This document shows, one piece after another, positions 48,337 through 50,197 of a DNA stretch of 51,502 nucleotides. The DNA comes from Escherichia coli (GTDB lineage: Bacteria; Pseudomonadota; Gammaproteobacteria; Enterobacterales; Enterobacteriaceae). How positions within the stretch are numbered: the first letter of the stretch is position 1; the number at the start of each line of letters is the position of its first letter. The stretch lies in the NCBI RefSeq assembly GCF_048403405.1, contig NZ_CP183133.1. One strand, given 5' to 3'. The notes under the pieces were generated by a model that did not search any database, had not been told where the DNA came from, and was given only the letters and a program-made list of their open reading frames with translations. Made by a program: the position numbers and the translations under genes.

Positions 48337-48746
48337 TCAGATCACGCGTATTCTGGACAGCATTGCACTGTTCCGAGGCTATCCGGCGACGATAAGAACT
48401 GACCAGGGGCCGGAGTTCACTTGCCGCGCACTGGATCAATGGGCTTTTGAGCATGGTGTTGAGTTGCGCTTAATCCAGCCGGGCAAGCCAACGCAGAACG
48501 GATTTATTGAGAGCTTTAACGGACGATTTCGCGATGAATGCCTGAATGAGCACTGGTTCAGCGATATCGTTCACGCAAGGAAAATCATTAATGACTGGCG
48601 GCAGGATTATAACGAGTGTCGTCCACATTCAGCACTGAATTATCAGACGCCATCAGAGTTTGCAGCACGGTGGCGAAATGTAAAATGTGAAGGTAAACAA
48701 ACCGACCTTACTAACTGACGGTTGTATCTAATCCTGGGGCAGGTCA
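48337..48746 (+). mobile_element. IS3-family element, right part: 3' portion of orfB plus IRR
   Basis: …[71 protein letters not shown]…; right IR reverse complement TGACCTGCCCCAGG ends at 48746; overlaps the 3724-4626 copy by about 90 bp with 3 mismatches, so it is a second copy. Confidence 0.7.
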
Positions 48747-49250
48747 CTCGCTGTACGCTTACGGAAGAACTTCTCCGGGATGTGCTGTTTCAGGCGCGCC
48801 ACGATGTCCCTCTGCGTCAGCGTCTCTGTGGCCAGCTCGCCCGTGTTGTGGTCGTGGTAGCGAAAGCTCAGCGTGGCACTTCCGGCGTAGTGCGCCAGCC
48901 GGGAGCCCGCTATCGGCGGCTTTTTCAGGTAACGCCCCAGGTATTTCACGGTGTTTTTGCCACCGTCCGTCTTTTTTGACATGTAGACGTGCCAGTAGTC
49001 GCCTCCGGCCGTCAGTATCAGACTGCGCCATTGTGATTCGGTGGTGATATGTGACAGGGACAGCGGCAGGGCCACGCCTTCGAACCAGACGCTCAGCAGA
49101 AGCTGGCGGATATTCCACATCCAGCGGGCGCGCATGGCATCCTTACGGAAGCTGATTTTCTTCCACTTCCCGTGCTCATCGATACCGCCACAGGTGACGG
49201 AGACGTGGACATGAGGGTGCCAGTTCTGCCTGATAAAAATGTCAGGGCAG
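48728..49250 (-). pseudogene. IS91-family (rolling-circle) transposase, C-terminal fragment
   Basis: …QNWHPHVHVSVTCGGIDEHGKWKK… and …VKYLGRYLKKPPIAGSRL… motifs; 5' end missing. Confidence 0.55.
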
Positions 49251-49276
49251 GTCTGCGCGAATACGCCTCATTGTCG

Positions 49277-50197
49277 CTACATTTTCTCCCTGGCATATAG
49301 CGAATTTATTGCCAACGCTGCCGCTGCGGTGCGATTGTCCACACTCAGCTTTGGAAATACAATTTCAAGGTGTTTATTCACGGTTCTGGGGCTAAGGTTT
49401 AAAATATCGCCAATTTCGCGGTTTGTTTTTCCCCTGGCAATCCACAGGAGGACTTCGGCTTCTCGTTGCGTCAGCCCTAGGTTGTTTTTCAGGCGTTTCA
49501 CCGCTTCGACTTCTTCATGTCCTTTGATCTCTTCAATACGTAGCAAACTTTCTCCTTCAGCGGTCCGGCGTGAAAGATAGAATTTCAGAGCGATGCCTTG
49601 CGATGAAAGATCTAAGGGTATTTTTAAACCTTCCGTATTGTTCAGCCAACCGATGATCCGGTTTACTATTTTTTTATTGGGTTCATACCCGGTATCGCTG
49701 AAGTTTTTCATCAGTTGCCATGCATTGGGCGTGGCCCAGCGTAGTTGCCCCTCTTTGCTAAAAACACATAAGGTCTGGCCAACGGAATCCATCGCGCTAT
49801 AGGCACTGACCGTTAATTTTGAGTTCCGCAAGTGGGTACGCATTCTGACAACCAGCTCTTCCGTGCGTATCGGCTTAATTACGTAATCGACCACCCCGGC
49901 ATCAAATGCATCAACGATATTCTGCGTATCACTCAGGCCTGTCATGAAAATAATCGGGGTATGCCGCAGCCCCGGATTTTGCCGCAGGCGCTTACTGGTT
50001 GAAAACCCATCCAGATGCGGCATTACGGCATCAAGCAGAATGATATCCGGGGTTATCTGGCTGGTTATCGAAAGGGCTTGATTACCCTCCAGAGCGACCA
50101 GAACGGTAAAACCGGCTTCATCAAGCGTGTCATTCAACATACTTACCGTGTTGATATCATCATCGACGATAAGTACCGTCGGCTTTGCTATTGCCAT
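49277..50197 (-). CDS. Response regulator: REC domain, central domain of unknown function, C-terminal LuxR/GerE-type HTH
   Basis: Start MAIAKPTVLIVDDD with RBS GGAGAG; C-terminus …LTQREAEVLLWIARGKTNREIGDILNLSPRTVNKHLEIVFPKLSV…. Confidence 0.75.
   Translation of the reverse strand: MAIAKPTVLIVDDDINTVSMLNDTLDEAGFTVLVALEGNQALSITSQITPDIILLDAVMPHLDGFSTSKRLRQNPGLRHTPIIFMTGLSDTQNIVDAFDAGVVDYVIKPIRTEELVVRMRTHLRNSKLTVSAYSAMDSVGQTLCVFSKEGQLRWATPNAWQLMKNFSDTGYEPNKKIVNRIIGWLNNTEGLKIPLDLSSQGIALKFYLSRRTAEGESLLRIEEIKGHEEVEAVKRLKNNLGLTQREAEVLLWIARGKTNREIGDILNLSPRTVNKHLEIVFPKLSVDNRTAAAALAINSLYAREKM

Follow-up and report, generated by a model that had tools for sequence, protein, structure and literature searches.

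An internal fragment (464 bp) of an IS91-family transposase gene beside a response regulator gene in Escherichia coli

The window analysed here, i.e. the whole stretch of Escherichia coli DNA (51,502 bp), carries a two-component system next to several insertion sequence (IS) remnants, the coordinates of which are listed in Table 1. Positions 50101-51502 followed by 1-812 showed unbroken 100% identity to plasmid p1-LC-1302-2020-KPC3; as the end and the start of the window are adjacent in related plasmids, it behaves as a closed circle or as a circular permutation. To judge from its sequence, the response regulator gene appears intact. The hybrid sensor histidine kinase gene upstream of it, on the same strand, runs over the circular join and is cut by IS26 at 812/813; about 410 of its 1,126 residues are thereby lost from the N-terminus. 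Therefore, the two-component system is itself a remnant here, and it is probably non-functional in this replicon.

Between them, the IS26 copy that truncates the kinase gene and a second copy divide the circle into arcs of 21 kb and 28.8 kb, the IS91-family fragment lying in the latter. The 21-kb arc (ParB, Y-family polymerase, group II intron) matches other plasmid lineages exactly to the IS26 boundaries, and the 28.8-kb arc resembles large Klebsiella plasmids. This arrangement suggests an IS26-mediated fusion and, to judge from the boundaries only, the most recent displacement of the 28.8-kb arc would more likely be due to IS26.

Table 1. Coordinates of the features discussed in the text (window positions; a dot marks features without an assigned strand).
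Feature	Positions	Strand	Evidence or remark
IS91-family tnpA internal fragment	48762..49225	-	Profile search, tblastn, base-level comparison
Spacer between regulator stop codon and IS91 fragment, 51 bp	49226..49276	.	Base-level comparison
Response regulator gene (REC + LuxR/GerE HTH, 306 aa)	49277..50197	-	P0121 100% identical at 306 aa
Hybrid sensor histidine kinase gene, 3' part (HisKA, HATPase_c, REC)	50160..51502	-	Continues into window 1-812
Hybrid kinase gene, continuation over circular join	1..812	-	Ends at 812/813, cut by IS26
IS26 copy truncating kinase gene	813..1632	.	14-bp inverted repeats at 813-826 and 1619-1632
Second IS26 copy	22675..23494	.	Divides circle together with first copy
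IS66-family IRR, terminal 16 bp (CTCGCTGTACGCTTAC, reverse complement of GTAAGCGTACAGCGAG)	48747..48762	+	Same terminus in L002, L012 and L013
IS3-family 3' fragment (C-terminal integrase core + IRR ending ...GGCAGGTCA at 48746)	48337..48746	+	Complete copy in L011
IS903-like IS5-family element, perfect 18-bp terminal inverted repeats	47281..48336	+	Abuts cut IS3 copy
IS110-family transposase gene	46035..47039	-	Annotated IS5075 in identical plasmids

Profile searches assigned the stretch beside the regulator to the IS91 family. It matched Pfam Y2_Tnp (PF04986) with E=2.5e-40 over profile positions 13-169 of 183, and NCBIfam transpos_IS91 with E=6.7e-34 and 117.5 bits over positions 148-299 of 356; these matches are far above chance, and the latter score falls below the full-length cutoff of 125 because the central part alone is present. 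When a full-length IS1294b-type transposase (Tnp; 402 aa, from L004) was used in tblastn, its residues 158-314 aligned with window positions 49231-48761, and no further IS91 homology was found with this query in the 51.5-kb window. The sequence-only reading had placed an IS91-family remnant within 48728-49277 and had named a contrary profile search as what would refute it; as to family, it was borne out.

The minus-strand translation of 48700-49300 gives one open stretch, GVFAQTCPDIFIRQNWHPHVHVSVTCGG...YLGRYLKKPPIAGSRLAHY...HIPEKFFRKRTASDLPQD*, and both the HUH (HPHVHV) and the YxxxY (YLGRYLKK) motifs are kept in the fragment. Base-level homology has its first base at AACTGG (49225) and its last at ...TTCTTCCG (48762); the wider range of the sequence-only reading arose because the ORF followed there reads into the IS66 terminus and the right inverted repeat (IRR) of the IS3-family copy. 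Compared with the closest complete element, the 464 bp correspond to Tnp residues ~159-315 of 404 and to element bases 820-1283 of 1,728. Absent on the 5' side are the first 819 bp, which in the complete element hold terIS, a small ORF upstream of tnpA and the codons of Tnp residues 1-158 with their N-terminal zinc-binding domain (PF14319); on the 3' side the last 445 bp are absent, that is, Tnp residues 316-404 with the C-terminal CxxC region, and oriIS. What had been taken for the 3' end of the gene is instead an internal piece with both termini missing. RefSeq already annotates the identical stretch likewise in E. coli-borne copies ('transposase; incomplete; missing N-terminus and C-terminus').

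No complete transposase ORF exists at the locus: stop codons lie in frame upstream, the first ATG comes only after the HUH motif and the frame exits into the IS66 terminus. No translatable transposase is left in the fragment. A longer tblastn alignment, in which the IS1294b-type Tnp of L004 extended from residue 40 through the regulator C-terminal region, was rejected as spurious, with low identity and two stop codons crossed; it arose by the coincidence that regulator and IS91 fragment are in the same reading frame, with only two stop codons (M*RQ*, window 49268-49279) between them. Across residues 154-314 the comparison with this Tnp gave 129 identities, and the value of 54% over the full alignment includes the spurious extension. 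A 10-nt repeat, CTTACGGAAG, at 48758 and 49142 had no interpretable role.

Complete IS91 relatives were taken from PLSDB, where they lie on Enterobacterales plasmids. The closest is an unnamed 1,728-bp element of Klebsiella variicola pJF-787 (NZ_KX868552.1) and Enterobacter mori pEn542_IMI-2 (NZ_OX147903.1), 99.9% identical between the two plasmids with different flanks. It is complete: a terIS hairpin (GAAC/TAAGCAGCCTGGCGGCTGC...) and the small upstream ORF precede the gene of a 404-aa Tnp, and behind this lies oriIS (...TTTCAATTTCCTATAC), with GTCA after it, whereas the window copy holds bases 820-1283 only. The fragment is 94.6% identical to it at the nucleotide level over all 464 bp (L008/L009 2411-2874) and 96% at the amino acid level over Tnp residues 159-315; another relative, P0009, is 92% identical. 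The closest relatives of the fragment fall in the IS1294/ISSbo1/IS801 subgroup. IS1294/IS1294b and ISSbo1 belong to the same subgroup, with about 75% nucleotide and 79% amino acid identity over the fragment and with HUH and YxxxY conserved. The IS91 type element and the ISCR elements share the Y2 HUH transposase family (Pfam PF04986) with the fragment, although the IS91 type element is more distant, the top sequence matches being IS1294, ISSbo1 and IS801.

On its 3' side, the fragment ends at the terminal 16 bp of an IS66-family inverted repeat, base 48762 being assignable to either of them. These 16 bp run on into about 400 bp of an IS66-family tnpC 3' end in both E. coli NCTC11129 and plasmid CT02, at the same IS91 position, and L041 and L042 break at 48747, the same position as the IS66 junction. 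The terminus is then followed by three different, unrelated flanks in L002, L012 and L013, and a left inverted repeat matching it (GTAAGCGTACAGCG...) is present in complete copies. These joins and the left repeat show that an IS66-family element inserted into the IS91 tnpA. An IS3-family fragment is in turn inserted into the IS66 IRR, its own IRR end being confirmed against the complete copy in L011, and it is cut at 48336/48337 by the IS903-like element, for which no 9-bp target duplication was found, as its flanks differ. The IS3-family IRR had been placed about 18 bp from the transposase remnant by the sequence-only reading; the two are indeed close, with a gap of 15-16 bp from the IRR end at 48746, and the DNA in between is the IS66-family terminus.

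The IS66 side of the fragment varies between records, where it meets IS3, IS66, a shorter IS3 piece (Klebsiella grimontii) or another insertion at 49017/49018. The last of these was seen in metagenome contigs (L036 1-52, L038 12028-12412), in which another element end (...GGCCAAATTCAGTAAACCACTTCA) is joined to a shorter IS91 fragment. Separately, a repeat finder reported a 16/31-nt similarity between the interior of the IS903-like element (47316-47346) and the DNA just right of it (48332-48362). Elsewhere in the window, a creatininase-family gene at 44314-44624 appears broken up into two short ORFs and, since two small proteins are annotated in related records, is probably a pseudogene.

The side of the fragment that faces the regulator is the N-terminal-proximal one. 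Here, the break lies inside tnpA at element base 820, and the distance to the regulator stop codon (49277-49279) is 51 bp rather than the 27 bp first reported. There is a step in GC content, the fragment having about 58-60% and the regulator about 47-49%. Neither in IS91-family elements nor downstream of the regulator orthologues (88% and 76% identity) was DNA homologous to the spacer found. Two short similarities at the spacer were treated as chance. The first is a GAAC across the junction (G from the spacer, AAC from the IS), considered as a trace of ter cleavage and set aside because its position is unfit for cleavage of this type, which occurs after GAAC. The second is a 9-nt sequence, GGGCAGGTC, found in both the spacer (49245-49253) and the IS3 IRR (48737-48745), set aside because the true left and right repeats of a complete IS3 copy gave no further similarity.

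The 49225/49226 junction was identical in every copy examined, namely five E. coli records, a K. grimontii contig and nine metagenome contigs; these nine came from ten contigs with an exact 30-mer of the spacer, the tenth ending before the junction. A complete element beside the regulator, or a regulator flank lacking the fragment, was looked for and not found in PLSDB (blastn with the regulator), complete E. coli genomes, 100,044 species-representative genomes (regulator protein) and the metagenome contigs (30-mer).

At 99% identity or higher, the fragment was detected in about 345 PLSDB plasmids and the regulator in almost the same number, about 350 (blastn), both figures being plasmid counts and not junction-by-junction checks. 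The missing parts of the element are far rarer in the same collection, the 5' part matching only 33 plasmids and the 3' 445 bp only 16, mostly of Enterobacter and other genera. With 345 fragment matches against 33 and 16, nearly all fragment-carrying plasmids must, by count, be without the rest of the element. The module was also seen in E. coli NCTC11129 (L002, NZ_LR134222.1, ~4.677-4.694 Mb), where the urt, kinase, regulator and IS91-fragment stretch is accompanied by amidase and ABC-transporter genes; as this record is labelled chromosome, an integrated plasmid segment or an assembly join is implied.

Such uniformity could be taken to mean that the fragment still serves a function, either as a truncated protein from the 135-aa ORF at 48728-49135 or by giving the regulator gene a terminator or some other regulatory signal. 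That ORF does exist, the regulator-side junction is the same in about 345 plasmids (by count) and the spacer has a weak inverted repeat. Nevertheless, the ORF starts past the HUH motif, runs out of IS91 into the IS66 and IS3 termini and is without both zinc-binding regions, while the spacer hairpin has no T-run. Moreover, the conservation at 99% or higher reflects the recent spread of one plasmid module and not selection, and other records shorten the fragment further at 49017/49018 with the module kept. A function of this kind is thus considered extremely unlikely.

The other proposal to be weighed concerns mobilisation. In IS91-family elements, terIS lies on the left, beside the upstream ORF and tnpA, and oriIS on the right, beside the target tetranucleotide, which is GTTC for IS1294 and GTCC for IS1294b (PMC13181058). 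Transposition begins at oriIS and stops at terIS; in 1-14% of events termination fails and DNA past terIS is mobilised. By this mechanism (PMC13181058), the co-mobilised DNA of a one-ended product would adjoin terIS, with the 5' part of tnpA intact. IS1294/IS1294b and ISSbo1 are experimentally active rolling-circle elements, intact and with oriIS and terIS, and show one-ended transposition at 1-14% (PMC13181058), whereas the fragment has no ends and no intact gene. The same layout was recovered in five complete copies, whose left side carries GAAC and a GCAGCCTGGCGGCTGC hairpin, and in which ...TTTCAATTTCCTATAC on the right precedes GTCA or GTCC. Insertion of IS91-family elements beside such a tetranucleotide makes no target duplication.

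On the basis of adjacency, the sequence-only reading had regarded the IS91-type element as a candidate vehicle for the two-component system, and had proposed a search for IS91-family ori and ter ends nearby and a comparison with related plasmids as checks. Neither lent it support. With up to three mismatches allowed, both the oriIS end (...TTTCAATTTCCTATAC, 19-mer) and the terIS end (GAAC plus the GCAGCCTGGCGGCTGC hairpin, 22-mer) gave 0 matches in the 51.5-kb window, and in the plasmid comparison described above the missing element parts matched just 33 and 16 plasmids, against 345 for the fragment. A lone 9-mer, TTCCTATAC, at 43930 was considered as a trace of oriIS and rejected, being at chance level (0.18 expected). 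No oriIS junction with a target tetranucleotide survives in the window. Nor does the putative cargo adjoin terIS and an intact IS that ends in oriIS on its other side, as its junction falls at element base 820. With both element ends missing, the fragment is predicted to be unable now to transpose or to mobilise anything.

A role in the past could still be envisaged. Through one-ended rolling-circle transposition, a complete IS91-family element downstream of the regulator, with terIS facing it, would have carried the urt/hybrid-kinase/LuxR-regulator module from some Enterobacterales chromosome to an ancestor of the large Klebsiella plasmids. The 5' 819 bp and the 3' end of the element would have disappeared later, through deletion and IS insertion. 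The orientation fits, since fragment, kinase and regulator share a strand, with the module upstream of tnpA, and what one-ended transposition carries is the DNA on this terIS side; within the comparison with the element layout, this orientation is compatible with the vehicle idea and the sole point in its favour. The uniform regulator-fragment junction in all copies examined agrees with such a history as well. In addition, Mangrovibacter carries the urt-kinase-regulator module on its chromosome, where the regulator is the last gene of the module, and since the module is chromosomal in other genera the plasmid copy must have been captured somehow; no close chromosomal source of the plasmid module was found among the 100,044 species-representative genomes by regulator protein search.

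Those same orthologous modules, however, argue against an IS91 vehicle: no IS91 was found beside the regulator orthologues of Mangrovibacter, Sodalis, Affinibrenneria and an Enterobacterales MAG within the available flanks, up to 4 kb. The cargo-side junction lies inside tnpA and not at terIS, and as a one-ended product keeps terIS and the whole of tnpA by its cargo, a further precise loss must be assumed; nor does the G/AAC at the junction stand where ter cleavage would place it. The marks by which such an event could be recognised (oriIS, terIS and the junction with the target tetranucleotide) are all gone. Finally, IS66, IS3, IS903-like, IS110-family and IS26 sequences all crowd the same spot, which makes adjacency alone weak evidence. 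A past transfer of the module by this element is therefore judged very improbable, if less so than a present function of the fragment.

Taken as a whole, with all the steps that follow, the locus is very probably explained as an inert scar, i.e. a 464-bp internal tnpA piece of an IS91-family IS of the IS1294/ISSbo1 subgroup. An IS66-family element inserted into tnpA after codon ~315, cutting the fragment on its 3' side; the left end of this IS66 element would be expected beside the lost 3' part of the IS91 element, with an 8-bp duplication of GGAAGAAC. An IS3-family element then inserted into the IS66 inverted repeat, which is why only the last 16 bp of IS66 remain in the window, and this IS3 copy now ends against the IS903-like element. 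The loss of the 5' side would go back to some deletion or recombination event by which element base 820 came to lie next to DNA 51 bp past the regulator stop codon, the order of events on this side being conjectural. According to this scar reading, the fragment would simply have been carried along with the urt/kinase/regulator module on Klebsiella-type plasmids.

Stacked IS remnants are routine in the accessory regions of Klebsiella plasmids, and the finding in itself matters little. Its useful result is a corrected map, in which an IS91 fragment, an IS66 tip, an IS3 fragment and an IS903-like element are nested. Together with the IS26-truncated two-component system, this nested map is a warning against inferring function or mobilisation history from adjacency alone.
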